Shown here: in pieces, positions 2,954 through 16,722 of the stretch
How the letters are laid out: each line of letters opens with the position of its first letter
Position numbering within the stretch: position 1 is the stretch's first letter
Assembly (NCBI GenBank): GCA_028700905.1
Contig: JAQVRT010000009.1
Span: 1 to 16,722 of the forward strand
From: Candidatus Iainarchaeum sp.
GTDB taxonomy: Archaea > Iainarchaeota > Iainarchaeia > Iainarchaeales > CSSED10-239
Direction of reading: 5' to 3'
Length of the DNA: 16,722 nt
The notes under the pieces: generated by a model
What the model saw: the letters and a program-made list of their open reading frames with translations, nothing else
Database searches by the model: none
What the model was told of the DNA's origin: nothing
Made by a program: the position numbers and the translations under genes

Positions 2954-3107
2954 AAAAAGAAATGTTTATAAATATAATATACAACATATAATAGTAAATT
3001 TAGTATTTAAATTTAAGAAATTTTTACAAATCAACACAGTTATTTCCTAAACTTTTCAAAATTTCTTTAAAATTATTAAATAATTGTATATGAGGTTAAG
3101 AATAATT

Positions 3108-5684
3108 ATGACAGAAAAGAAAAAAAGAAATAGATACTTGAAACTAAGTATTTTAGGTGTTCTATTAATTGCTATTGCTTTTTTAGCAACTGCATATGTT
3201 AGTGGTAAAACTGTTGTTGAAGATGAGATTTATTTCCAATGGGTATCTCACACAGAATATTGGAGAGAAGATTATGGTTCAACTATTGTAAGATTATCAG
3301 ACTATAAAGGTAATCCTTATCCAATAGATGAATGTAGAGTAACAATTTTATACCCAGACAAATCTGTTTTTATTGATGATCAGCCAATGTATGAATCAAA
3401 TATCGCAGGTAACTGGTATAGAACAGATTATTTAGGTGGTGCTCCTTTAGGTACTTATGAACAAGAAGTAACTTGTAGAAGTGGAGCAACAATTGTTAAA
3501 AGTTCACAATCTTTCCACTTAAATCCTGCACTTGAACAAGTAAGTGTATTAACAGAAAAATCAGATAATTTAGATTTAAGACTTGCAGATGTTAATGTTT
3601 CTGTTTCTGGTCAAATTTCTGAAACTGGAGAATACATTACAACAAATTTAACAAACATGAATACTTCTTTAAATGATTTACTTGCAGATGTTAATGGAAC
3701 TCTTGCAAATCAATTACAAGAAGGAATTGTAACATTACAAACTGATCTTTCAGGTGTTGATCTTTCTTTAACAGGTACAATTTCATCAACTGGTAAAGAA
3801 ATTCAAACAAGTTTAACAAATGTTAATACAAATTTAAAAAGTCTTTTAACAAATGTTAATTCTGATATTTTAGATCAAATGGATACAAATTTTGATTCTT
3901 TAAATGCAAATTTAAATAATGTTAATTTAAATTTAACAGGTACAATTGCATCTACTGGTGAAGAAATAAATACAAATATTGATGCAACTAACACAAATTT
4001 AACTAATCTTTTAAATTCAGTTAATTCTGGTCTTTTAGATCAAATGGATTCTGATTTTAATTCATTAAATGAAAACTTAAATGATGTTAGTTTAAATTTA
4101 ACTGGAACTGTTCTTTTAACAGGAGAAGAAATTAATACAAATATTGATACTACAAACACAAATTTAACAAATCTTTTAAATTCAGTTAATTCTGGTCTTT
4201 TAGATCAAATGGAATTTGATTATAATTCTTTAACTGCAAATTTAAATGATGTTAGTTTAAATTTAACAGGTACAGTTACAGGTACAGGAGAAGAAATTAA
4301 TACAAATATTAATACTTCTACAACAAATATTTTAGATTTATTAAATGCAGTAAATAATAATTTATTAAATCAATTAGAAGAAGATTTTAATACTTCTCAA
4401 AATAATTTAGAAAATGTAAATTTAAGTTTAACTGCAAATTTAGAAGAAACTGGTGAAGAGATTAATACAAATTTAACAAATGTTTCAACTTCTTTAACTG
4501 GTCTTTTAAATACAGTTAATACAGATCTTTCAGATAAGATTGATTTAAAGTTTGCAGAATTGTCAGATCAACTTACAAATGTAAGTTTAAGTTTAAATGC
4601 AAATTTAGATGAGACTGGAGAAGAGATTAATACAAATATTTCTCTTTCAACAACTACTCTTTCAAATCTTTTAAACACAGTTAATACAGATCTTTCAGAT
4701 AAGATTGATTTAAGATTTAATCAATTGTCTGAGCAACTTACAAATGTAAGTTTAAGTTTAAATGCAAATTTAGAAGAAACTGGAGAAGAGATTAATACAA
4801 ATATTTCTCTTTCAACAACTACTCTTTCAAATCTTTTAAACACAGTTAATACAGATCTTTCAGATAAGATTGACTTAAGATTTGCAGAATTATCAAGTCA
4901 ACTTGAAAATGTTAATTTATCATTAACTGCAACTGTTACAGAAACAGGTGAAGAAATAAATACAAATTTAACAAATGTTTCAACTTCTTTAACTGATCTT
5001 TTAAATGCTGTTAATGTTAATTTATCTACTGAAATTACAGATCAATTTAATAATACAAATGCATTAATTGCACAAAAGTTTTCAGATTCAAATGATTTCC
5101 TTTCAACAAGACTTGATAATTTAGAGATTTCTGTAAATGGAACTGTTGTTTCAACAGGTCAAACTTTACAAACACAGATTACAGATGTAAATGATTCTCT
5201 TTCAAGTTTAATGACAGATTTAGTTGTAAATAATATAAATGTTCAACTAGATTTAATGCTTGAAGATTTAACAAATCAATTAACATCAATTAAACAAGAT
5301 ACTAATTGGCTTGTTTCAAATTCAATTAATCAAGAAGACATGGATGAAATTAGAAACAGATTTTCATCAGTTGATGATAATCTTGCATTAGTTGAAAATT
5401 TCTGTGGAAATCAAGATACTAACAACAGCCCATTATGTCAAGAAGTTTATAATATTAAAACAGCTGTTGAAATAATGGATCAAACACAAGCACAAAAGTT
5501 AGAAGAAATTAATCAAACTACTTTAAGTACATGGAATCTTTTAAGTGGTGAGATTAGAACAAATATTGATTCTATCTTAACTGATGTTGGTATTATTAAA
5601 GCACAAACAACTGATATCAATGCAACTGTTCATCAAATATTAGAAAATCAAGAATCAGAAATTAATATAAGAATTATTTCTTAG
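3108..5684 (+). CDS. Large N-terminally membrane-anchored repeat protein (predicted cell-surface fibrous protein); family not recognised
   Basis: I prefer the ATG at 3108 (MTEKKKRNRYLKLSILGVLLIAIAFLATAYV...), preceded by GAGGT at 3092-3096, over the track TTG start at 3084. The protein has four parts. First, a basic N-terminus and one TM helix. Second, a ~100-aa module (nt ~3234-3533) with two Cys. Third, about ten 55-aa repeats. Fourth, a ~130-aa non-repeat C-terminal region containing a C-x11-C loop (5403-5438). The repeat region is rich in Asn/Thr/Leu/Ser/Asp/Glu and carries many N-x-S/T sequons. Confidence 0.85.
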   Translation: MTEKKKRNRYLKLSILGVLLIAIAFLATAYVSGKTVVEDEIYFQWVSHTEYWREDYGSTIVRLSDYKGNPYPIDECRVTILYPDKSVFIDDQPMYESNIAGNWYRTDYLGGAPLGTYEQEVTCRSGATIVKSSQSFHLNPALEQVSVLTEKSDNLDLRLADVNVSVSGQISETGEYITTNLTNMNTSLNDLLADVNGTLANQLQEGIVTLQTDLSGVDLSLTGTISSTGKEIQTSLTNVNTNLKSLLTNVNSDILDQMDTNFDSLNANLNNVNLNLTGTIASTGEEINTNIDATNTNLTNLLNSVNSGLLDQMDSDFNSLNENLNDVSLNLTGTVLLTGEEINTNIDTTNTNLTNLLNSVNSGLLDQMEFDYNSLTANLNDVSLNLTGTVTGTGEEINTNINTSTTNILDLLNAVNNNLLNQLEEDFNTSQNNLENVNLSLTANLEETGEEINTNLTNVSTSLTGLLNTVNTDLSDKIDLKFAELSDQLTNVSLSLNANLDETGEEINTNISLSTTTLSNLLNTVNTDLSDKIDLRFNQLSEQLTNVSLSLNANLEETGEEINTNISLSTTTLSNLLNTVNTDLSDKIDLRFAELSSQLENVNLSLTATVTETGEEINTNLTNVSTSLTDLLNAVNVNLSTEITDQFNNTNALIAQKFSDSNDFLSTRLDNLEISVNGTVVSTGQTLQTQITDVNDSLSSLMTDLVVNNINVQLDLMLEDLTNQLTSIKQDTNWLVSNSINQEDMDEIRNRFSSVDDNLALVENFCGNQDTNNSPLCQEVYNIKTAVEIMDQTQAQKLEEINQTTLSTWNLLSGEIRTNIDSILTDVGIIKAQTTDINATVHQILENQESEINIRIIS
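3597..5291 (+). repeat. In-frame tandem array of ~10 units of 165 bp (55 aa); unit 9 is 210 bp
   Basis: Unit boundaries fall at 3597, 3762, 3927, 4092, 4257, 4422, 4587, 4752, 4917 and 5127. The consensus is L-S/N-L-T-G/A-T/N-x-x-x-TGEEINTN-x-x-x-x-T-x-L-x-x-LLN-x-VN-x-x-L-x-D-x-x-D-x-x-F-x-x-L-x-x-x-L-x-NV-S/N. The period is verified by ACAGATCTTT recurring at 4521, 4686 and 4851. Units 7 and 8 share a 95-nt exact match (4614-4708 versus 4779-4873). The first and last units are degenerate. Confidence 0.92.
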
Positions 5685-7471: not shown

Positions 7472-10339
7472 ATGTATAACTATAATGACTTTGAAAAAAA
7501 ATGGCAAAATAAATGGAAAGAAGAAAATATAGGTGTTTCAAATAGAGATGAGACAAAACCTAAATTTTTTTTAATATGGGCATACTTAACTGTATCTGGT
7601 TTCCATCATGTAGGGCATATGAGAGGATATTCTTATGCTGATGCAGTTTGTAGATTTAAAAGAATGCAAGGATATAATGTTTTACTTTCAGCAGGTGGAC
7701 ATGCTTCTGGAAATGGTGCTGTTTCAAAGGCTTTAAAAGTTAAAGAAAATGATTCTGATACAATTGATTATTATAAAAGTAAAGGATTAACAAAAGAAAA
7801 TTTAGATCAAATTTCAACACCTGAAGGTTTTGTTGATTATTTTTCTCAAATGTATGTTAAAGATTATATTTCTTATGGTTATTTAGTGGATGATAGAAGA
7901 TTTACTGTAACTACTTATCCTGATTATCAAAAATTTATTGAATGGCAATTTAAAAAATTAAAAGAAAAAGATTTACTTGTACAAAAACCATATTTTGCAA
8001 CTGCTTGTGTTAAATGCGGTCCTGTTGCAGTTGATCCATCTGAGATGGATTTATCAAAAGGTGGAAATGCAGAAAAACAAGAATTTACAATTATTAAACT
8101 TAAGTTTGAAAAAGAGAATCAATTTATTTTAGTTGCAACCTTAAGACCAGAAACTGTTTATGGTCAAACAAACATTTGGCTTTCTCCAGAAGAAGAATAT
8201 GTTAAAATAAAATCAGGAAATGAATTTTGGATAGCATCTAAAGATTTTTATGAAAAAATTAAATATCAAGTAGATAATCTTGAACTTTCTGGTCAATCTT
8301 TTAAAGGAAGTGAGCTTTTAGGTAAATATGTAACCCCTCCTATAATTAATAGAGAGATAATTATCTTACCTTCTTCTTTTTGTGATCCTAAGATAGGAAC
8401 TGGTATTGTAACTTCTGTTCCTTCTGATGCACCTGCTGATTGGATGGGTCTTTATGACTTACAAAGATCAAAAGAAGAATGTGACAAATATAATTTAGAT
8501 TTTGAAACTATTAAAAATATTAAACTAATACCAATAATTAAATCTAAAGATTTTGGAGATTTTCCTGCAGTTGAAATTTGTGAAAATATGAAAATTAATT
8601 CTCAAAAAGATACTGAAAAGTTAGAAATTGCAAAAAAAGAAGTTTACAAAAAAGGATATCATACAGGAGTTATGAGTGATACTTGTGATGAATATGCAGG
8701 CCTTAAAGTAGAAGTTGCAAAAGATAAAATTAAACAAAAAATGATTGATGATAATAATGCTTTTATTTTTTATGATTTATCAGAAGAAGTTCTTTGTAGA
8801 TGTTCTTCTCCAGTTGTTATAAAAAGAATAGATGATCAATGGTTTATTAAATATTCAGATAAACAATTAACTGAAAAAACAATTGAATATATTAAAGAAA
8901 TGTCTATTTTACCAGACTCTTTTAAAAAGAATTTGCCAAATGTTTTAAATTGGTTTGATGATAGAGCTTGTGCAAGACAAGGAACTTGGCTTGGAACAAA
9001 ACTTCCTTTTGATACTTCTTATACAGTTGAACCAATATCAGATAGTACTCTTTATCCTATCTATTATTTAGTTTCACTTTATGTAAATCAAGGAAAAATA
9101 AATGTTGAACAATTAACTGAAGAATTTTTTGACTTTGTGTTTTTAGGAAAAGGTAATTCTATTGAGGTTGCAAAAAATATTTCAATGGATATTAATCTTT
9201 TAGAAAATGTAAGAAAAGATGTACTTTATTGGTATCCATTAGATATTAATCTAGGTGGTAAAGAACATCAAACAGTTCATTTTCCAACATTTTTAATGAA
9301 CCATGTTGCTGTTTTTGAAAAAAATTTCTATCCTAAAGGAATTTTTGTAAATTGGTGGGTTGTTTCAAATGGTGGAAAAATTTCTAAATCTAAAGGTGGT
9401 GTTGGATCTATTGGTTCTGAAGCTGAAAAATATTCTGTAGATGCAATTAGACTTTTCTATGCAAATATTGCAAGTCCTTTTGTTGATATTACTTTTGAAG
9501 AAGAAGATTTAAAGACTTATAAACAAAGACTTGAAAGAATATTTGTGTTTATTGAAAATATAATTTCTTCAAGTGAGTTTAAAGAAGATTTAAAAGAAAC
9601 TGAACTTGATAGATGGTTTGAATCTAAATTTAATCTAAGACTTCAAACAATTATTGATTCTATGGACAAAATAGAATTTAAGGCAGCTACTGATGAAATT
9701 TATTTTAATTTTTATAATGACTTTTCTTGGTATCTTAAAAGAGGAGGAATTAATAAAAATGTTATTTTTTCAATTCTTAAAAAATGGATTTTAACAATGG
9801 GTCTTTTTACTCCTCATGTTTCTGAAGAACTAAATAGTCTTTTAGGTGAGAATTTTCTTGTTGTAAAACAAACATTCCCTGAGATTGAAATTGAAAAAAT
9901 TAATCTTTCTCTTGATGATAAAGAAAAAAATGTTGAAAAAATGATTAGTAACTTAAGAAATGTAATTAAATTATCTGGTCTTGAAAAAATAAATAAAATA
10001 TCTTTATTTGTATCTGAATCTTGGAAATATATTTTCTATTCAGAAGTAATTGCTGAACTTGAAATTACTAAAAATGTTGGACAAATTATTTCCAAATTTA
10101 TATCTAAATATCCTGATAATAAACAAGAAGTTTCAAAAGCAATTCCTAAATTATTAAAACAACCAATGTCTAAAGAAAATTTAAAAACTCAAGAAGAAGA
10201 CTATAATTTTTTAATATCTATTAAAGATTTTTTAGAATTGACTTTTAATACATCTATTGAAATTATAAAAGCAGAAGAAAGTGATAATGAAAAAGCAAAA
10301 AGTGCAACTCCTGGAAAAATAGGTTTTTTAGTTGAGTAG
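7472..10339 (+). CDS. leuS: Leucyl-tRNA synthetase, archaeal/eukaryal type, editing domain apparently intact
   Basis: 955-aa ORF with the HIGH motif as HHVGH (TVSGFHHVGHMRGY) and the KMSKS motif as KISKS (GGKISKSKGG). CP1 editing-domain signatures are TLRPETVYGQTN and GTGIVTSVPSDAPAD. The TLRPET form is archaeal/eukaryal, whereas bacteria have TTRPDT. Length and the C-terminal extension are also consistent with the archaeal type. Confidence 0.95.
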   Translation: MYNYNDFEKKWQNKWKEENIGVSNRDETKPKFFLIWAYLTVSGFHHVGHMRGYSYADAVCRFKRMQGYNVLLSAGGHASGNGAVSKALKVKENDSDTIDYYKSKGLTKENLDQISTPEGFVDYFSQMYVKDYISYGYLVDDRRFTVTTYPDYQKFIEWQFKKLKEKDLLVQKPYFATACVKCGPVAVDPSEMDLSKGGNAEKQEFTIIKLKFEKENQFILVATLRPETVYGQTNIWLSPEEEYVKIKSGNEFWIASKDFYEKIKYQVDNLELSGQSFKGSELLGKYVTPPIINREIIILPSSFCDPKIGTGIVTSVPSDAPADWMGLYDLQRSKEECDKYNLDFETIKNIKLIPIIKSKDFGDFPAVEICENMKINSQKDTEKLEIAKKEVYKKGYHTGVMSDTCDEYAGLKVEVAKDKIKQKMIDDNNAFIFYDLSEEVLCRCSSPVVIKRIDDQWFIKYSDKQLTEKTIEYIKEMSILPDSFKKNLPNVLNWFDDRACARQGTWLGTKLPFDTSYTVEPISDSTLYPIYYLVSLYVNQGKINVEQLTEEFFDFVFLGKGNSIEVAKNISMDINLLENVRKDVLYWYPLDINLGGKEHQTVHFPTFLMNHVAVFEKNFYPKGIFVNWWVVSNGGKISKSKGGVGSIGSEAEKYSVDAIRLFYANIASPFVDITFEEEDLKTYKQRLERIFVFIENIISSSEFKEDLKETELDRWFESKFNLRLQTIIDSMDKIEFKAATDEIYFNFYNDFSWYLKRGGINKNVIFSILKKWILTMGLFTPHVSEELNSLLGENFLVVKQTFPEIEIEKINLSLDDKEKNVEKMISNLRNVIKLSGLEKINKISLFVSESWKYIFYSEVIAELEITKNVGQIISKFISKYPDNKQEVSKAIPKLLKQPMSKENLKTQEEDYNFLISIKDFLELTFNTSIEIIKAEESDNEKAKSATPGKIGFLVE

Positions 10340-10382: not shown

Positions 10383-11765
10383 ATGATTAAAAATAAATTT
10401 GTAAAAGAATATAAAGAATTAATTAAAGATTATACTTCAAATATTGAAAAATCATATGATTTAATTTTAGAAAATTATTCTAATAAATATATTTTTAAAA
10501 ATATCCCTTTAGTTGAATACTCTTTAGCTATTGCTAAAAAATTAAATGTGTATGATGAAAATATCATTATTTCTTCTGTTCTTTATAATCCTTATAAATA
10601 TAATTTAGATATTAAAAAGAAAGGTTTTCCTAAGATTATTAGAAAGATATCAAAAGATATTTATTTTATTAATTTTTATGAACTTATAAATAATTATTCT
10701 ATTTCTCCTATTAAAATAAAAAATATGATTGTTCAATCTTTTTTTAAGATTGAAGCAATAATAATCACTTTTGGTGAAGCTTTAGTTATTTTAGATTATT
10801 TTTCTGTAATTGAAGATGTTAAATTTAAAAACAGATTTTTAGAAATTATTGAAATTGCAATTTTTCCTTTAGCTTATCAGCTTGGTATGCAAAATTTTAA
10901 AGAAGAATTTTTAACTCAATTAATGAAATTAAAATATAAAGATAGTTTTAATAAAAATTATACTGAACTTAAAAAAAGATATCCTTTAGAAAAACTTAAT
11001 TCTTTAAAAGAAACTGTTATTAATCTATTAAAAAATTCAGGTCATAAGCCAATAACTTATAATTATAGATATAAAAGTCCTGGTAGTTTATTTCAGAAAA
11101 TATTTATTAGAAAAGAAAAGAAATGTATTGATGAAGTTTTAGATATTTATGCATTAAGATTAATTTATAATTCTAAGAAAGAATGTTATGCTGCTTTAAA
11201 GTTTATTAAAGATAATCTAGATGTTATTGAAAATAAAGATATAAAAGTAAGAGATTTTATTAAGCATCCTAAAGAAAATGGTTATCAATCTATTCACTTA
11301 AATATTATTTTAGATGGCTTTCCTTTAGAAATACAAATAAGAACTATAGACATGCATAACAATGCTGAGTTTGGTGTATCTGCTCATTTCCACTATAAAA
11401 ATATTGAATTTTCTGAAAAAGATAATCGTTTAATTAATATTTTAAAAGATAAAACATTAATTGAAAAACCAAAAGATATTTCATATGTTGATTACATTAG
11501 TGTATATACCCAGACAAATCAAGAGATTGTAATTCCTAAAAAATCAACTCTTCTAGATTTTGCATTTTCTCTTCATTCTGATTTTGCAAAATATTTTGAT
11601 TATGCAGAAATTAATGAAAAAATAATTAAAGATAAGTCTCATCTTCTTAAAAATGGAGATAAGATAAAGATTATTAAATCTAAGAAAGTGACTATTAAAG
11701 AAACTGACATAGATTATTTATTTAATAAAAGAAATAAAAAGAAGTTTAATCTTATTTTAAAATAA
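10383..11765 (+). CDS. RelA/SpoT homologue (RSH): degenerate HD (pseudo-hydrolase) domain, (p)ppGpp-synthetase domain and TGS domain, with no further C-terminal domains
   Basis: The synthetase motifs (nt ~11055-11402) are YRYKSPGSLFQKIFIRK, DIYALRLI, VRDFIKHPKENGYQSIHLNI and EIQIRTIDMHNNAEFGVSAHFHYK. The TGS domain (nt ~11493-11684) reads ISVYTQTNQEIVIPKKSTLLDFAFSLHSDFAKYFDYAEINEKIIKDKSHLLKNGDKIKII. The N-terminal ~200 aa keep the HD-domain scaffold: FPLAYQLGMQNFKEEF resembles APLA-x-RLG-x-x-x-K-x-ELE. The expected His reads PLVEYSLAIA, and the HD dyad reads VLYNP (Tyr-Asn codons at 10584-10589). Confidence 0.8.
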   Translation: MIKNKFVKEYKELIKDYTSNIEKSYDLILENYSNKYIFKNIPLVEYSLAIAKKLNVYDENIIISSVLYNPYKYNLDIKKKGFPKIIRKISKDIYFINFYELINNYSISPIKIKNMIVQSFFKIEAIIITFGEALVILDYFSVIEDVKFKNRFLEIIEIAIFPLAYQLGMQNFKEEFLTQLMKLKYKDSFNKNYTELKKRYPLEKLNSLKETVINLLKNSGHKPITYNYRYKSPGSLFQKIFIRKEKKCIDEVLDIYALRLIYNSKKECYAALKFIKDNLDVIENKDIKVRDFIKHPKENGYQSIHLNIILDGFPLEIQIRTIDMHNNAEFGVSAHFHYKNIEFSEKDNRLINILKDKTLIEKPKDISYVDYISVYTQTNQEIVIPKKSTLLDFAFSLHSDFAKYFDYAEINEKIIKDKSHLLKNGDKIKIIKSKKVTIKETDIDYLFNKRNKKKFNLILK

Positions 11766-11883: not shown

Positions 11884-13083
11884 TTATTTCCCAGAAACTA
11901 TTTCTATACAGTCATTATTTTTTAATGGATGGTCTTTACCTAGAAGCATTCTTGTCTTAACATCAATTGCTTTAATAAAGTTTTTACCAAAATCTGTATG
12001 TAGTTTAAAAGCAAAATCAATTGCTTTTGAGCCAGGTGGCATTAAGAAACAGTCAGGTAAGATATTTCCATCTTTATCCCCTAGTCCTTTTGTTCCTCCT
12101 GGATATACTGCAATATATTTTAAAACTTCAAAAACAGAAGTGTCTAATATCTTCTGAACACCAGTTTCTTGATATTTTTCTAAAATATTTGTTTTTATAA
12201 ATTCAAGAGCTTGTTTTTGTTTATCAGATAAATCTTCTTTCAATATTTTAAAGGAAGAATCTCCAGGAAGATATTCAATAATCTTTGCTTTTTCTGCAGC
12301 TTTTAGAGCATATTCTGATTCTGCAGAACATGGAATTATTGTAAGTTCAGGAAATTCTTCTTTCATTCTTTCAATATTTTCTTTTGCAAAAGGAAGATCT
12401 ATTTTGTTTGCAGCAATAACTATAGGTTTTGAAACTTTTCTAATCTCTTTTGTAAAAAATAAAAGTTCTTCATCTGTCCATTCTGCAATATTTTTATCAA
12501 CTAAATTACTTTTTTTAAGTGCTTGAAGTATTTCTTCTTCTTTTGAACCTAATGTTGCATAAAGGTATTCTTCTAAAACTCTTAAAGTTTTAATTTTTTG
12601 TACTCTTTGAACAGTTCCTATTTTTATGAAATTTCTTTTAAAAATATCAAATAACCATTTTTCAATTTCTTCAACTAAAAATTTAATTTCAAGAGATGGA
12701 TTGTAACTTCCAGCTTTAACAGGTTTTCCTTCTTCATCAGTGGAACCTGATGCATCAATTACTTGTATTAAAACATCTGCTTGGTTAAGGTCAGTTAAAA
12801 ACTTATTTCCAAGTCCTCTTCCTTCAGATGCGCCTGGAACTAAACCTGCAACATCAATAACATCTACTGGAAGATATCTTATGTGGTTTTTACAGTATCC
12901 TGTTCTTGGATTGCATTGTGTTTTAAAAAAAGAATCTACACAGTTATTTCTTACAAAACCAACTCCTTTATTAGGGTCAATTGTTGTGAATGGATAATTT
13001 GCAGATTCTGCATCCATTAATGTTAAAGCTCTAAAAAAAGTTGTTTTTCCTTTGTTAGGAGCACCCACAATACCTATAAGCAT
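11884..13083 (-). CDS. Obg-family (YchF/DRG-like) P-loop GTPase with a C-terminal TGS-like domain
   Basis: 399-aa ORF with G1 MLIGIVGAPNKGKTTFF, G3 DVAGLV and G4 AANKIDL (NKxD, so GTP-specific). The C-terminal beta-grasp/TGS-like segment reads ILPDCFLMPPGSKAIDFAFKLHTDFGKNFIKAIDVKTRMLLGKDHPLKNNDCIEIVS. Confidence 0.88.
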   Translation of the reverse strand: MLIGIVGAPNKGKTTFFRALTLMDAESANYPFTTIDPNKGVGFVRNNCVDSFFKTQCNPRTGYCKNHIRYLPVDVIDVAGLVPGASEGRGLGNKFLTDLNQADVLIQVIDASGSTDEEGKPVKAGSYNPSLEIKFLVEEIEKWLFDIFKRNFIKIGTVQRVQKIKTLRVLEEYLYATLGSKEEEILQALKKSNLVDKNIAEWTDEELLFFTKEIRKVSKPIVIAANKIDLPFAKENIERMKEEFPELTIIPCSAESEYALKAAEKAKIIEYLPGDSSFKILKEDLSDKQKQALEFIKTNILEKYQETGVQKILDTSVFEVLKYIAVYPGGTKGLGDKDGNILPDCFLMPPGSKAIDFAFKLHTDFGKNFIKAIDVKTRMLLGKDHPLKNNDCIEIVSGK

Positions 13084-13087
13084 ATAA

Positions 13088-14233
13088 TCACCTTAATCCA
13101 TATTTATAATTTTTAAATTTTTCAATTGATTTTATTTCAATTTTATTTTCTTTAATTAATTCTTTAATTAAATATCTTATTCCTTGTCTTGTTATTAAAA
13201 GTTTTTTAGATAATTCATTAATTGTTAAATTTGTTTTTAATAATTCATTTAATATAATTTTTTTATTACCTTTAACGTATCTTTTGGGTTTATTTACTCT
13301 CTTTATAAATTCTTCAATTTTATTTTGTTTATATCCTAAGTTTATTTCTGGATATTCTTTTATTAGTTTCAAGTAATCATTATAAAATTCATTTAAATTT
13401 ATTGAAAGAATATATAAACAAAACATTCCGTCTTTACCTGGTTTTATTGTTGTTTTATAATTTAATTGATTACAAATATTTTGTAAGTCTTTAATTAGAT
13501 TTTCATTTTTAAGACGTATTATAATTAAATTAGAGTCAATAGAACCTTCATCTATTATTATTCCAATTAAGAATGCTAATTTATGTTTCTTGTTTTTGTT
13601 AAAGATATCTTTAGGTATTCTTGCTATTTCTGATTTAAAACTATTTACATTTAAATTATATTGTTTAAATAATAAATTTGACACAACTACTGGGAAATAT
13701 ATTCTAGTTGTATTTTTATTATGAAAATATTTTTTTTTATATTTTAATTTTCCAAAAACCGATTCAATTTTTTTAATATATAGATTTCTATAATTTATAT
13801 TAAATTGTCTATATCCAAAATATGGTTGTCTTCCTTTTCCATTTATAACTGTTCCATCACCAATATGATGTGCAATTAACATATCAAATATAGGTGAAAT
13901 TTTAATTGGTAATTTTGGTTTTTCAATATAATTATATCCTCCTCTAATTTTATAGGCTATTATATTTTTTTGTAGTTTAAAAATAGATATTTTTAATAGT
14001 TTACATAAATTTAATAAAATTTCTAAATCAATAAAATATTTGTATCCTAATTTCATCTTAGCTTTAAATGTAGAGAAAGGAATTTTATAATTCATTATTA
14101 ATTTTTGGTGTATATTTTTTTTTGTACTATATTTTTTTTTAATTCTTTTATTTATATCATTTAAGAACAAAGTATCTACTTTAATATTTATTTTATCTCC
14201 TAATTCCCAAATATTTATTTCATTTCTATTCAT
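13088..14233 (-). CDS. Free-standing double-motif LAGLIDADG homing-endonuclease-like protein with HTH-like N- and C-terminal segments
   Basis: 381-aa ORF. Motif 1 is MLIAHHIGDG (nt 13853-13882) and motif 2 is LAFLIGIIIDEG (nt 13544-13579). The acidic residue preceding the final Gly is kept in both (D, then E). The N-terminal segment IPFSTFKAKMKLGYKYFIDLEILLNLCKLLKISIFKL looks XRE/Cro-like. The C-terminal segment LTINELSKKLLITRQGIRYLIKELIKENKIEI looks like a winged-helix/HTH. There are no intein splicing blocks, and the stop lies 4 nt before the GTPase start codon. Confidence 0.72.
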   Translation of the reverse strand: MNRNEINIWELGDKINIKVDTLFLNDINKRIKKKYSTKKNIHQKLIMNYKIPFSTFKAKMKLGYKYFIDLEILLNLCKLLKISIFKLQKNIIAYKIRGGYNYIEKPKLPIKISPIFDMLIAHHIGDGTVINGKGRQPYFGYRQFNINYRNLYIKKIESVFGKLKYKKKYFHNKNTTRIYFPVVVSNLLFKQYNLNVNSFKSEIARIPKDIFNKNKKHKLAFLIGIIIDEGSIDSNLIIIRLKNENLIKDLQNICNQLNYKTTIKPGKDGMFCLYILSINLNEFYNDYLKLIKEYPEINLGYKQNKIEEFIKRVNKPKRYVKGNKKIILNELLKTNLTINELSKKLLITRQGIRYLIKELIKENKIEIKSIEKFKNYKYGLR

Positions 14234-14319: not shown

Positions 14320-15153
14320 TTATATCTTTTTAGTTTTTTCTATATATGTTTCAACAAAAGATATACAAAATAATATTAAAGGAATCCATCCTATAAAAAC
14401 TAAAACTGGTATATTGTATAGCATATAGTGCATAAATGGAATGTTTACATACATCCATTCAAAGGAAAAAATATTTGCAACTTCATGTGTTATTACTAAA
14501 AATAAAGAACTAAGTAATAATGTGTATATTATGTGTTTTGATTTTATAAGTCTTAATAAAATAGGGGTTTTGTATTCAAGCAAAAGTGAATCTGAAAATA
14601 ACCATATTGATAAAAATGGAAAAATCATTGTGTAATTAGTACCTATTTTTCCAAATATCATATAATTGATTAAAGGTATTATTAAAAAAATAAATGCTAT
14701 TATTTGTAGTTTCTCTCTTAATTTATGATTTGGTTTATATTTATTATATTTTGTGTCATCTAAGTATTTTTCAAAGATTTTATAAGTTCCATAAACTAAA
14801 AGTATAAAACAAAAATTAATTATTGTATAAAGTACTATCCAATTAACTAAAGTATAATTATTCCATGACCAAATTTCAAATAATAAAACTCCGTAAAAAT
14901 AATCAACAACTATTGCTGAAATTAAAGAACCTATTATGAAAAAATAGGTTGCTTTTATTTTTGATTTTTTAAACAAAAGATCAATTACTGATTCTTTTCT
15001 AAGTTTGTAATTAATAAAATCAATAATGATTAAATATCCTATACAAAAGAAAACATAAAATCTAGGTATTTTTAAAACTGTTGACATGTATATGCTACCA
15101 AATAATATAATTAATCCAATTATTGCTAAAATATTGTGATTTTTCTTTTCCAT
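14320..15153 (-). CDS. Polytopic integral membrane protein (about 8 predicted TM helices), family not recognised
   Basis: I prefer the ATG at 15153 (MEKKNHNILAIIGLIILFGS...) over the track start at 15201, which adds 16 low-complexity residues. The protein has repeated hydrophobic 20-aa stretches separated by short K/Y/N-rich loops. A possible polar motif sits in a late helix (ITHEVANIFSFEWMY). Confidence 0.65.
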   Translation of the reverse strand: MEKKNHNILAIIGLIILFGSIYMSTVLKIPRFYVFFCIGYLIIIDFINYKLRKESVIDLLFKKSKIKATYFFIIGSLISAIVVDYFYGVLLFEIWSWNNYTLVNWIVLYTIINFCFILLVYGTYKIFEKYLDDTKYNKYKPNHKLREKLQIIAFIFLIIPLINYMIFGKIGTNYTMIFPFLSIWLFSDSLLLEYKTPILLRLIKSKHIIYTLLLSSLFLVITHEVANIFSFEWMYVNIPFMHYMLYNIPVLVFIGWIPLILFCISFVETYIEKTKKI

Positions 15154-15264
15154 ATTTAATATATTTTTAATTTGTTTAAGATATATATTAAATAGAAACA
15201 TTTATATTTATTTAACCTCATATATAATTGTTTAATTATTAAACCATAAGGAGAAAAGATAATT

Positions 15265-15633: not shown

Positions 15634-16003
15634 TTTTATGTATTAATATTTTTTTAAAATCTTAATTTTTTGAAAAATTCATCTAAGTGTTTTTATAAGT
15701 TAAGTTGTATTAAAAAACCTTTTAAAACCGTTCAAACTAAAATTAAGTAATTTTAATTGTTTTTTACTCTAAATAAAGTTTAATTTAACCTTCTTTTTTT
15801 TAATTTTAAAAAATCACTTAGGAAAAAAACAATACCTTTAAAAGCTTTGCTCTTCTAAAGATTATATTACCCACTAGGAGTTTTTTCTTAGTGAGTTAGA
15901 CCGTTTAATACTTAACAAATTTTACGGAATGAAAGAAGTAGGAAATAATGCCTAATAATAACAAAAGCAAGTTTATTTGGTTAAAAAAAATGATTCTTAA
16001 ATT

Positions 16004-16722
16004 TTAGCTAAACCAATTAGTGGATAACTTGGCTTGTGTACTGATGAAGGACGTGGCAAGCTGCGATAAGCTTGGGGTAGGTGCATGCAACCTTTGATCC
16101 CAAGATTTCCGAATTATTCACTTTATGTAAATAAGGTGAAGGGGTAACCCAGGGAATTGAAGCATCTTAGTACCTGGAGGAAAAGAAAACAATAGTGATT
16201 CTGTAAATAGAGTTGATCGAAAGCAGAAGAGAACAAACCGAATCTCTTATAGTAATATAAGAGACATGTGGGGTATGGCTTGGTTACTTCTTATATATTT
16301 AAGTTGAAGCGATCTGGAAAGATCTACCATAGAGGGTGATAGTCCCGTAAGCAGAAGATATCTGAGAAGATTTCCGATGTCCTAGAGTATTGCGCGTTGG
16401 ATATCGCGTAAGAACGTAGCTGGCATTTACAGCTAATTCTAAATATAACACAAGACCGATAGTGAACGAGTACTGCGAAGGAATGTTGAAAAGATCCCTT
16501 GACGGGGAGTAAAAAGCACTTGAAACTAATTGGTGACAGCGCGGGTGTGGCTTGAAAGGAATGAGAGTAATTTATAAGTGATAAAAGGTAACTTTTAAAG
16601 CGCAAATTACTTGATCAGGGTCACACTGTCCGTCACGAAGCACGGGCGAGGGAGTTAGTTTGTGTGGCAAGACTAAGCGATTAAGTCGTTGTGTCGTAGG
16701 GAAACCGATGTGCCGCAAGATT
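16004..16722 (+). rRNA. rrl: 23S (large-subunit) rRNA, 5' ~720 nt (domain I), archaeal type; continues beyond the window end
   Basis: Conserved LSU blocks are GTGGATAACTTGGC (16020), GATGAAGGACGTGGCAAGCTGCGATAAGC (16043-16071), TTGATCCCAAGATTTCCGAAT, GGGGTAACCCAGGGAATTGAAGCATCTTAGTACCTGGAGGAAAAGAAA, GACCGATAGTGAACGAGTACTGCGAAGGAA and GGGGAGTAAAAAGCACTTGAAAC. The CAAGCTGCG form is archaeal, whereas bacteria have CTAATCTGCG. The 5' end (about 16004, give or take 15 nt) is estimated by comparison with the Haloarcula marismortui 5' end as I remember it. GC content is visibly higher than in the flanking DNA. Confidence 0.93.

Follow-up and report, generated by a model that had tools for sequence, protein, structure and literature searches.

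Signalling by (p)ppGpp is considered a trait of bacteria and plastids, and the zinc-finger/RIS and ACT/RRM domains serve as the ribosome anchors of bacterial RSH enzymes. Among these enzymes, RelA[hS] is the monofunctional stringent factor found in gamma- and beta-proteobacteria, in which an inactive pseudo-HD domain stands beside an active synthetase (SYNTH) domain and is followed by a TGS domain with a CCA-reading histidine. The small alarmone synthetases (RelP, RelQ and toxSAS) share the SYNTH fold and its catalytic residues but consist of a single domain, and toxSAS have a bicistronic antitoxin partner. In addition, a truncated long RSH of Bacilli has been described, RshC[HS], which is cut within the helical domain and retains TGS (Atkinson et al., 2011, PMC3153485).

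The classic RSH census contained no long RSHs in archaea (PMC3153485), and up to 2021 no archaeon had been found to contain (p)ppGpp (PMC8646023). More recent counts gave a RelA/SpoT prevalence of 69% in Diapherotrites, 41.7% in Woesearchaeota, 21.3% in Pacearchaeota and 19% in Nanoarchaeota (Li et al., 2021, PMC8407392). The genes counted presumably encode the DPANN archaeal long RSHs that are about 620-640 aa in length, such as P0135 and P0146, and that have archaeal 23S rRNA or RadA on the same contigs. With these counts and these contigs, the statement of an earlier, sequence-only reading that archaeal long RSHs are sporadic is outdated; that reading had held that widespread archaeal homologues would lower the novelty of the gene, and the novelty is indeed lowered because DPANN RelA/SpoT genes were already reported in 2021. 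Here, we describe a shorter RSH, encoded in a window of 16,722 nt (the whole stretch of DNA that was analysed), and compare it with these systems.

Domain architecture of the minimal RSH

The RSH gene starts with ATG and encodes a 460-aa product, in which an HD-like domain, a RelA_SpoT synthetase, a TGS domain and one more helix follow each other from the N to the C terminus (Table 1). The protein has the Rel/RelA/SpoT (long RSH) fold. Its AF2 model (pLDDT 83.6, pTM 0.81) retrieved with Foldseek B. subtilis Rel (6yxa, E 3e-22), ribosome-bound RelA (5iqr, 6e-21) and SpoT (7qpr), and the family profile aligned with B. subtilis Rel 6yxa, residues 9-461 on 15-483, at an E value of 1.1e-41 (146 bits). 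The whole-protein match to TIGR00691 (Rel/RelA/SpoT) scored 170.9 bits and fell below the cutoff, which is set at 499.2. The NCBI label of the protein is "TGS domain-containing protein" only.

Table 1. Features of the window discussed in the text
Feature	Coordinates	Strand	Basis
Archaeal-type leucyl-tRNA synthetase (LeuRS)	7472..10339	+	TIGR00395 leuS_arch, 782.8 bits vs 648.5 cutoff
Minimal RSH gene (pseudo-HD, SYNTH, TGS, one helix)	10383..11765	+	stop codon included; ORF list, Pfam, TIGR00691, Foldseek, conserved family
Predicted pseudo-hydrolase domain, residues 1-200	10383..10982	+	HD-like helical fold; Y46, Y68, N69, K72, E132, I136 in catalytic positions
SYNTH domain, residues 201-340	10983..11402	+	PF04607 at 229-340; residues mapped to B. 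subtilis Rel
SYNTH-TGS linker, residues 341-371	11403..11495	+	poorly conserved, low-confidence
TGS domain, residues 372-432, invariant H398	11496..11678	+	Pfam PF02824; alignment to 6yxa
Basic C-terminal tail, residues 433-460	11679..11762	+	aligned to B. subtilis Rel 457-483
Obg-family GTPase, YchF-related (YGR210-type), carrying a TGS domain	11884..13083	-	NF007171, 512 bits vs 387 cutoff
Archaeal 23S rRNA gene, 5' part, cut by window end	15996..16722	+	Rfam RF02540, 528 bits, model positions 1-740

All motifs that the sequence-only reading had quoted were located in the protein, namely YRYKSPGSLFQK (residues 228-239), DIYALRLI (254-261), HPKENGYQSIH (295-305), KVRD (288-291), EIQIRT...AEFGVSAHFHYK (316-339), PLVEYSL (42-48) and VLYNP (66-70). 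Its description of the gene as a domain-minimised long RSH of pseudo-HD, SYNTH and TGS with no hydrolase in cis was upheld by Pfam, Foldseek, profile alignment and residue conservation. A frameshift or truncation artefact was ruled out, as the protein is 455-467 aa long clade-wide and its gene is internal in all contigs, and only 118 bp separate it from the convergent next gene. The differences from a 98%-identical homologue cluster at residues 143-149, where they are in-frame substitutions with no compensating frameshifts.

The synthetase domain matched Pfam PF04607 (RelA_SpoT; residues 229-340) at an E value of 1.4e-29 (103.1 bits, cutoff 27). The residues R229, K231, D254, R259, D291, K297, N299, Y301, H305, E316 and Q318 are kept, corresponding to R241, K243, D264, R269, D298, K304, N306, Y308, H312, E324 and Q326 of B. 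subtilis Rel, and these 11 catalytic or substrate-binding residues do not vary within the family or among the 85 other RSHs compared, with two exceptions, both at N306. One of them, D254, is the equivalent of D264, and the D264G change in B. subtilis Rel abolishes synthesis (PMC7797070). SYNTH is also the best-conserved domain of the family (32% invariant columns), with its catalytic residues intact down to 45% identity. The presence of the hallmark synthetase motifs was therefore confirmed, and a loss of essential catalytic residues was looked for and none was found; on these alignments, the synthetase active site is predicted to be complete. The position equivalent to G240 is Tyr (Y228) family-wide, a concern that is weakened, though not removed, because this column varies in other RSHs (G in 53, S in 10, Y in 5 and W in 3). 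KVRD had been read as a basic, Rel/SAS-type version of the RxKD/ExDD region. It is basic in the 460-aa protein, but across the family only D291 is invariant, with K, T, L, R, S or Q at position 288 and R, T, S or N at position 290.

The N-terminal part retains an HD fold. The profile alignment starts at query residue 9 (residue 15 of B. subtilis Rel), Foldseek aligned this part with Rel N-terminal fragments at TM 0.65-0.72 over about 340 columns, and the AF2 model has a pLDDT of about 90 for residues 21-200. No Pfam match to HD or HD_4 was found in the 460-aa protein, even at E<=1. In the profile alignment to 6yxa, whose posterior is about 0.8 in the HD motifs, other residues stand in for three of the four Mn-binding residues of B. 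subtilis Rel (Y46 for H53, and Y68/N69 for H77/D78), while D144 at the fourth metal-ligand column corresponds to E132. The Glu-Asp pair after the HD dyad is gone (E81 aligns with K72, and D82 is deleted), and two further changes are N148 to I136 and R44 to I37. Because the ligands and this pair are replaced and neither HD nor HD_4 is matched, the protein does not carry the functional HD motif needed for the [H] state. The substituted state at the listed positions is common to 16 family sequences, with N69 and I136 invariant, and the remaining HD positions show few alternative residues, among them a His at the H53 column in one member. Thus, the replacement of the metal-binding His and of the HD dyad, as claimed from the sequence, stands, since the alignment restores neither. 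The mean pairwise identity of the domain in the family alignment is 0.55 with 34 invariant columns (0.63 for SYNTH). The domain itself is thus conserved, although its hydrolase active site is predicted to be dead.

The linker that joins SYNTH to TGS has a mean pairwise identity of 0.47, and the model has a pLDDT <50 for residues 333-364. The TGS domain itself matched Pfam PF02824 (residues 372-432) at an E value of 6.8e-11 (42.5 bits, cutoff 22.2), and the family shows no variation at H398 or in the DFA(F/Y)xxH motif around it. As the TGS histidine (H420/H432) stacks on the tRNA 3'-CCA end (PMC7797070), H398 is the predicted CCA-reading histidine, and it is kept. The tail, with helices predicted by AF2 at residues 440-445 and 449-459, matches the first helix of the Rel helical domain, and the chain stops there, 28 aa past TGS, in agreement with the approximately 25 aa estimated earlier. 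Because the chain ends after this first helix, the protein has neither the zinc-finger/RIS nor the ACT/RRM domain; no Pfam match to RIS or ACT was found in the 460-aa protein, unlike its bacterial and 630-aa archaeal homologues.

Comparison with known RSH systems

The archaeal protein resembles RelA[hS] in its domain order, its predicted dead hydrolase site and its CCA-reading His. The likeness extends to the metal-ligand columns, where a bacterial RelA-type protein (P0153, with rlmD upstream) has Y-Y-P-E and the archaeal family has Y-Y-N-E. RelA, however, carries the full helical, ZFD/RIS and ACT/RRM region and usually ExDD, whereas the archaeal protein has one helix and KVRD, and the archaeal family forms a clade separate from RelA-like sequences in neighbour-joining (NJ) trees. 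Truncation after TGS had been taken as a departure from long RSHs, but RshC[HS] provides a bacterial example of it (PMC3153485); compared by its published description, RshC is classed [HS], whereas the hydrolase site of the archaeal protein is predicted to be dead. A 472-aa protein of Caldisericota (P0136) combines HD, SYNTH and TGS in a similarly short form and retains the His and HD residues (HP..., LLHD). Each architectural element therefore has a bacterial precedent, the TGS-only truncation in RshC and the pseudo-HD in RelA, known separately.

The approximately 630-aa archaeal RSHs are among the best-scoring non-family matches of the family profile, with about 29% identity across the whole window protein. 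They keep HD_4, RIS and ACT, whereas the window family is without RIS, ACT and a detectable HD signature. Their HD columns range, in a rough alignment, from full H/H/D/D to partly substituted, and were full in the one that was checked. Small alarmone synthetases are more distant from the three-domain archaeal protein, whose family profile matched long RSHs with 146 bits and small synthetases with about 50 bits.

Archaeal host and conserved family

Host assignment was based on rRNA, marker genes and source names. The claim of an archaeal genome was borne out by the archaeal LSU rRNA in the window, a LeuRS above the leuS_arch cutoff and the YchF-related GTPase. The host is a DPANN archaeon with a tiny genome; its source names are "archaeon" and "Candidatus ainarchaeum sp.", and it probably belongs to the Iainarchaeota (Diapherotrites). 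Four independent assemblies are 98-99% identical with the same gene order, and a near-identical RSH protein, NCP71982.1, is also encoded on an 840-kb contig; with the 23S rRNA on the contig, the check for a chimera found none. The 23S rRNA gene lies at the same relative place in four further loci, full-length in L085, L086 and L088 and truncated at the end of the contig in L087.

The family is a small conserved clade of proteins of 455-467 aa, with members down to 45% identity. It was monophyletic in 200/200 replicates, and its nearest sister was another minimal RSH (P0167); the resolving power of the NJ trees is limited to these two results. A scan of GTDB representative genomes with generic RSH-motif patterns gave, among the matches listed, Rel genes of bacteria and no member of the family. 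The pseudo-HD/SYNTH/TGS architecture is conserved through a monophyletic archaeal clade. Horizontal acquisition, as proposed by the sequence-only reading, was not borne out, since the gene GC of 19.5% lies inside the host range (17.7-29.3%) and the clade is old and monophyletic. A recent bacterial transfer of the gene is not indicated, and the gene may plausibly go back to a bacterial source deep within DPANN.

Gene neighbourhood

The LeuRS gene ends 43 bp upstream of the RSH start on the same strand. This co-directional adjacency is kept in all close-clade loci (L081-L088), and in L088 the last position of LeuRS is also the first of the RSH gene (coordinate 10001), so that the two genes are probably co-transcribed in the close clade. 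In the more distant L090, the adjacency is absent and the RSH gene is flanked by genes for a PF02784 decarboxylase and a PF00491 arginase-family protein. Adjacency as evidence for functional coupling was downgraded on this ground, because its absence in L090 means that it may be inherited synteny without functional coupling. The GTPase (Pfam YGR210-like_G4, MMR_HSR1 and TGS), which is convergent to the RSH gene, is syntenic within the close clade only and is regarded as context. A diadenylate cyclase is among the neighbours in L085, and a polyamine cluster is found in another sub-clade. A hydrolase candidate was looked for in the roughly 10 kb on either side of the gene, and none was present at any of the loci.

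Predicted function and alternative explanations

We propose, with a probability of roughly 0.6, that the gene encodes a monofunctional (p)ppGpp synthetase gated by uncharged tRNA, a reduced long RSH of a DPANN archaeon; taken separately, the monofunctional synthetase is the most likely identity, and gating by uncharged tRNA is possible. The enzyme would transfer pyrophosphate from ATP onto the 3'-OH group of GDP or GTP, giving (p)ppGpp, with RelA-like synthesis only, and the pseudo-HD domain may be a structural or allosteric partner of SYNTH. Uncharged tRNA would gate the activity through TGS and the basic C-terminal helix, either bound off the ribosome or by a docking unlike the bacterial mode, and (p)ppGpp would be removed in trans by a separate enzyme. 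An isolated TGS-Helical fragment of Rel does bind deacylated tRNA specifically off the ribosome (PMC7797070). B. subtilis Rel without ZFD and RRM is compromised in synthesis and in activation by starved ribosomes (PMC7797070), and because of this effect the archaeal protein may be regulated quite differently or be weakly active. A more specific version, in which a ribosome-independent or differently docked tRNA sensor is wired to LeuRS expression and a non-RSH hydrolase, or exchange with the host cell, clears the alarmone, is tentative and on the doubtful side.

The absence of the ribosome-anchoring ZFD/RIS and ACT/RRM domains would also fit an active (p)ppGpp synthetase that is blind to tRNA, with either a low constitutive output or TGS and pseudo-HD domains that are autoinhibitory or bind partners, as SpoT-TGS does with ACP and DarB with Rel. 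The impaired ribosome-dependent synthesis of C-terminally truncated B. subtilis Rel (PMC7797070) points the same way, and the neighbours differ among sub-clades (LeuRS, the polyamine cluster and the L085 diadenylate cyclase), suggesting varied physiological couplings. Against this stand the invariant His398 and DFA(F/Y)xxH motif and the retained basic helix, the counterpart of the Rel segment that together with TGS binds deacylated tRNA specifically off the ribosome, and we consider a tRNA-blind enzyme unlikely. The missing cis hydrolase and a weak PADLOC match, at 45 bits and in the SYNTH region only, to the candidate defence family PDC-S33 might instead suggest another acceptor, with the protein acting as a (p)ppApp synthetase or, if TGS delivers tRNA to the active site, as a tRNA 3'-CCA pyrophosphokinase, a toxin or defence effector like toxic small alarmone synthetases. 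The guanine-side residues K297, N299, Y301 and H305 are, however, invariant as in Rel, long RSHs are matched far better (E 1e-41) than small synthetases, and there is no antitoxin-like bicistronic partner among housekeeping neighbours that are syntenic clade-wide. Given the weakness of the PADLOC match and the housekeeping context, the defence or toxin reading was rejected, and a different acceptor appears quite improbable.

Reductive DPANN genomes, a hydrolase site that has already decayed and the lack of detected archaeal (p)ppGpp as of 2021 (PMC8646023) could be taken to indicate a catalytically inert relic that serves as an RNA- or ribosome-binding scaffold, but SYNTH is the best-conserved domain with all catalytic residues intact, a pattern unexpected for an inert domain, which makes a relic very improbable. 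The classic long RSHs are those of bacteria (Atkinson et al., 2011, PMC3153485), and the closest solved structures are bacterial too, so that a bacterial contaminant or chimera, or misalignment of the HD site of a bifunctional enzyme, was also considered. Contamination conflicts with the archaeal 23S rRNA and LeuRS on the contig, the GC content, the near-identical protein on the 840-kb contig, and a gene order that is repeated in the four assemblies and in the four further family loci with archaeal 23S rRNA; misalignment conflicts with the Y, Y and N found at the H, H and D columns in nearly all members at the posterior given above. We regard both as refuted by rRNA, LeuRS, synteny, GC and profile alignment, with a negligible chance of being right.

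Implications for archaeal alarmone signalling

Under the preferred reading, a monofunctional synthetase possibly gated by uncharged tRNA, the retained parts are only those predicted to be needed for alarmone synthesis and for reading the 3' end of tRNA, so that the protein represents a natural minimal construct. Such a construct bears on whether (p)ppGpp is in use in some archaea, as well as on whether TGS sensing of uncharged tRNA works without ribosome anchors. If the tRNA-sensor reading is true, there would be a real archaeal stringent-type alarmone response in DPANN.

Domain layout and active sites of the RSH protein

The RSH gene lies in very AT-rich DNA (window GC ~24%), and each of the motifs named in the sequence-only reading was found at the expected residues of its 460-aa product. 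Pfam assigned the RelA_SpoT synthetase domain (SYNTH) to residues 229-340 (E 1.4e-29) and the TGS domain to residues 372-432 (E 6.8e-11), and no Pfam match to HD or HD_4 was obtained in the protein even at E<=1. The NCBIfam RelA/SpoT model TIGR00691 aligned residues 111-456 to model positions 93-446 of 687, with a score below the cutoff (170.9 vs 499.2 bits). The C-terminus lies 28 residues past TGS, and in the family-profile alignment residues 433-460 match the first, basic helix of the Rel helical domain. As only 118 bp separate the stop codon from the convergent gene, there is no decayed C-terminal remnant downstream.

The AlphaFold2 model, built from the family alignment, reached a pLDDT of 83.6 and a pTM of 0.81, and was poor only at residues 1-5 and in the SYNTH-TGS linker (333-364). 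Foldseek comparison with the PDB retrieved Bacillus subtilis Rel (6yxa, E 3e-22), ribosome-bound Escherichia coli RelA (5iqr) and full-length SpoT (7qpr), with target-normalised TM scores of 0.65-0.72 over ~340 columns for Rel HD+SYNTH fragments; small alarmone synthetases ranked far lower than long RSHs. The family profile aligned with B. subtilis Rel as a single segment, from residue 9 to 461 (E 1.1e-41). In this alignment the hydrolase-site residues of B. subtilis Rel are replaced family-wide: R44 by I37, H53 by Y46, H77 by Y68, D78 by N69, E81 by K72, D144 by E132 and N148 by I136, with D82 deleted. The synthetase residues R241, K243, D264, R269, D298, K304, N306, Y308, H312, E324 and Q326 (B. 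subtilis numbering) are kept, and are invariant in the family and 85 other aligned RSHs with two exceptions, both at N306. The single unusual synthetase position is Y228 in place of G240, a column that also varies in other RSHs (G 53, S 10, Y 5, W 3). The TGS histidine H398, equivalent to H420 of B. subtilis Rel and H432 of E. coli RelA, is invariant. The initial observation of a truncated RSH with a dead hydrolase domain in an archaeal genome was confirmed in full.

Compared with contigs that match the window at 98-99% elsewhere, the codons for residues 141-147 of the pseudo-HD domain carry nine substitutions in 21 nt, all in frame, which alter a surface loop (SVIEDVK vs PKIKDPD). The loop may be hypervariable, or the difference may reflect a small patch of recombination.

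Family, relatives and phylogeny

A word-indexed search recovered 15 clusters of 455-467 aa, 45-98% identical and annotated with RelA_SpoT and TGS only, below which scores fell sharply to bacterial long RSHs (715-740 aa, ~30% identity). Similarly, an exhaustive profile search of 1.84 billion representatives placed the close family at 405-662 bits, followed by a gap and a next match at 206 bits. Mean pairwise identity within the family (invariant columns in brackets) is 0.63 (45) for SYNTH, 0.62 (15) for TGS, 0.47 (2) for the SYNTH-TGS linker and 0.45 (2) for the C-terminal tail; the N-terminal domain, at 0.55 with 34 invariant columns, is thus constrained rather than decaying.

The best matches outside the family include proteins of ~620-640 aa with HD_4, RelA_SpoT, TGS, RIS and ACT domains. 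One homologue, P0135, has the full H/H/D/D signature and shares its contig with an archaeal 23S rRNA gene; another, P0146, in which HD is changed to HN, has an intein-containing RadA and genes of purine biosynthesis on its contig of 270 kb. Their presence on such contigs indicates that archaeal long RSHs exist, and a rough alignment shows HD columns that vary among these proteins from fully kept to partly substituted. The ~630-aa archaeal RSHs P0146 and P0139 have a common order of TIM-barrel gene, RSH and KaiC-like ATPase, and in locus L092 this set adjoins genes for GMP synthase, PurD-, PurF- and PurA-like proteins and a phosphoribosyltransferase. The contig of locus L089, which encodes an HD-intact 638-aa RSH, carries a group I intron (Rfam RF00028, 60.9 bits) within its archaeal 23S rRNA gene.

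In a neighbour-joining (NJ) bootstrap analysis (200 replicates, 250 SYNTH+TGS columns), the family was monophyletic in all 200 replicates and the homologue P0167 was its sister in 159/200, the level to which resolution is limited. P0167 (loci L094 and L095; 452 aa) represents a distant second lineage of this minimal design, in which SYNTH, TGS and one helix follow a degenerate N-terminal domain; across SYNTH and TGS its identity to the window protein is 39%. Its contigs are short, and one ERZ accession is numerically near those of window-like contigs. Short HD-SYNTH-TGS proteins are found in bacteria as well, an example being a 472-aa Caldisericota protein in which the His and HD residues are retained. 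At the four ligand columns (window residues 46, 68, 69 and 132), bacterial RelA-type proteins show Y-Y-P-E or L-Y-P-E; P0153, with rlmD upstream, has Y-Y-P-E. The Y-Y-N-E of the window family is close to these, and the HD sites look as if they had decayed convergently to similar residues.

Host and gene neighbourhood

The check for a chimeric assembly supported an archaeal host. The window includes an archaeal 23S rRNA that covers model positions 1-740 (528 bits), the LeuRS gene directly upstream of the RSH gene is of the archaeal type (TIGR00395, 782.8 bits vs cutoff 648.5), and the convergent gene downstream encodes a YchF-related, YGR210-type GTPase. Four independent assemblies, two from ENA, one from JGI and one from Logan, encode a 98%-identical protein in the same gene order, and their DNA is 98-99% identical to the window. 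Cluster-mates of this protein, encoded on contigs of 364 and 840 kb, have the source names 'TGS domain-containing protein [archaeon]' or '[Candidatus ainarchaeum sp.]' and the IMG name '(p)ppGpp synthase/HD superfamily hydrolase'. The GC content of the RSH gene (19.5%) falls within the range of its neighbours (17.7-29.3%). Taken together, the rRNA, LeuRS, four assemblies, long contigs and GC content leave chimerism, contamination and recent transfer excluded or unsupported. In the window and three related loci, 3-4 kb separate the 23S rRNA gene from RSH. Rfam detected no 16S or 5S rRNA in the window or in the related loci of ~21 kb, which suggests that this lineage has unlinked rRNA genes.

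Coordinates of features in the window and related loci
Feature	Region	Position	Strand
RSH ORF (ATG start)	window	10383-11765	+
Substituted patch in RSH	window	10803-10823	
Coiled-coil protein gene	window	3084-5684	+
DNA self-matches	window	3767-5015	
ORF, 381 aa, 17.7% GC	window	13088-14233	-
ORF, 293 aa, 20% GC	window	14320-15201	-
23S rRNA	window	15996-16722	+
23S rRNA	L085	15601-18582	
23S rRNA	L086	14825-17797	
23S rRNA	L088	14437-17419	
Diadenylate cyclase	L085	11458-12153	+
Group I intron	L089	20212-20453	-
RSH with PF02784 and PF00491 neighbours	L090	8913-12288	
TIM-barrel/RSH/KaiC-like order (P0139)	L091	4777-8220	
TIM-barrel/RSH/KaiC-like order (P0146)	L092	9267-20600	
P0167 gene	L094	1929-3287	

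LeuRS is immediately upstream of RSH on the same strand in every close-clade locus, with gaps of 33-111 bp; in L088, LeuRS ends at the same coordinate at which RSH starts. P0280 (L090, GCA_964468895.1), the most distant member of the family, has a different setting: its gene is flanked on one side by a gene for a PF02784 decarboxylase (ornithine/arginine type) and on the other by a PF00491 arginase-family gene, an arrangement that looks like a polyamine cluster rather than a LeuRS context. Inherited synteny may therefore account for the LeuRS link. The relative at L085 (GCA_037441475.1), which is 76% identical, has a diadenylate cyclase gene (DAC, PF02457) 57 bp downstream of RSH on the same strand, placing two genes for synthases of nucleotide second messengers side by side; at the matching position the window lacks a gene. 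No HD, Nudix or GppA-type genes were found within ~10 kb of RSH in any locus, and L090 has a HIT-family hydrolase gene 2.6 kb downstream.

Elsewhere in the window, a predicted coiled-coil protein of 866 aa (858, 803, 746 and 636 aa in close relatives) shows weak similarity to the ZorA coiled-coil tail, and its DNA self-matches are 73-79% identical. Two ORFs have no family assignment: that of 381 aa gave only sub-threshold LAGLIDADG_3 and MarR matches, and that of 293 aa, replaced by a called 105-aa gene in near-identical contigs, may be spurious or a pseudogene.

Discussion

Long RSHs were reported to be absent from archaea, with a few small synthetases or hydrolases in euryarchaea (Atkinson et al., 2011). 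More recently, RelA/SpoT was found in 69% of Diapherotrites, 41.7% of Woesearchaeota, 21.3% of Pacearchaeota and 19% of Nanoarchaeota, and the DPANN genes were predicted to originate from Bacteria (Li et al., 2021). The earlier interpretation is partly supported: it holds for a domain-minimised, hydrolase-dead long-RSH derivative in a real archaeon, but the rarity it assumed is outdated, and a recent horizontal acquisition is not indicated. Our literature search found no paper on the architecture, pseudo-HD state or activity of these archaeal RSHs.

Every element of the architecture has a bacterial precedent. Bacterial RshC[HS] proteins are 'truncated within the helical domain', keeping TGS and missing CC and ACT (Atkinson et al., 2011), and RelA has the same working plan (pseudo-HD, active SYNTH, TGS), the activity of the window protein being predicted from its sequence. 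Membership tests nevertheless placed the window protein outside RelA, canonical long RSHs and small alarmone synthetases.

In Rel, D264G abolishes synthesis, the 3'-CCA end of deacylated tRNA is the stacking partner of H420/H432, and loss of ZFD and RRM compromises ribosome-dependent synthesis; the isolated TGS-Helical fragment is specific for deacylated tRNA off the ribosome, whereas the full-length protein is not (Takada et al., PMC7797070). The window protein is similar in layout to a pseudo-HD/SYNTH core joined to a minimal tRNA reader of TGS plus one helix. On the basis of this likeness we favour a mechanism in which it would act as a monofunctional (p)ppGpp synthetase, and in which uncharged tRNA would control its output in the absence of the ribosome anchors found in bacteria. 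As a natural minimal construct, the protein lends itself to two questions: whether (p)ppGpp is made by some archaea, and whether TGS can sense uncharged tRNA without ribosome anchoring.
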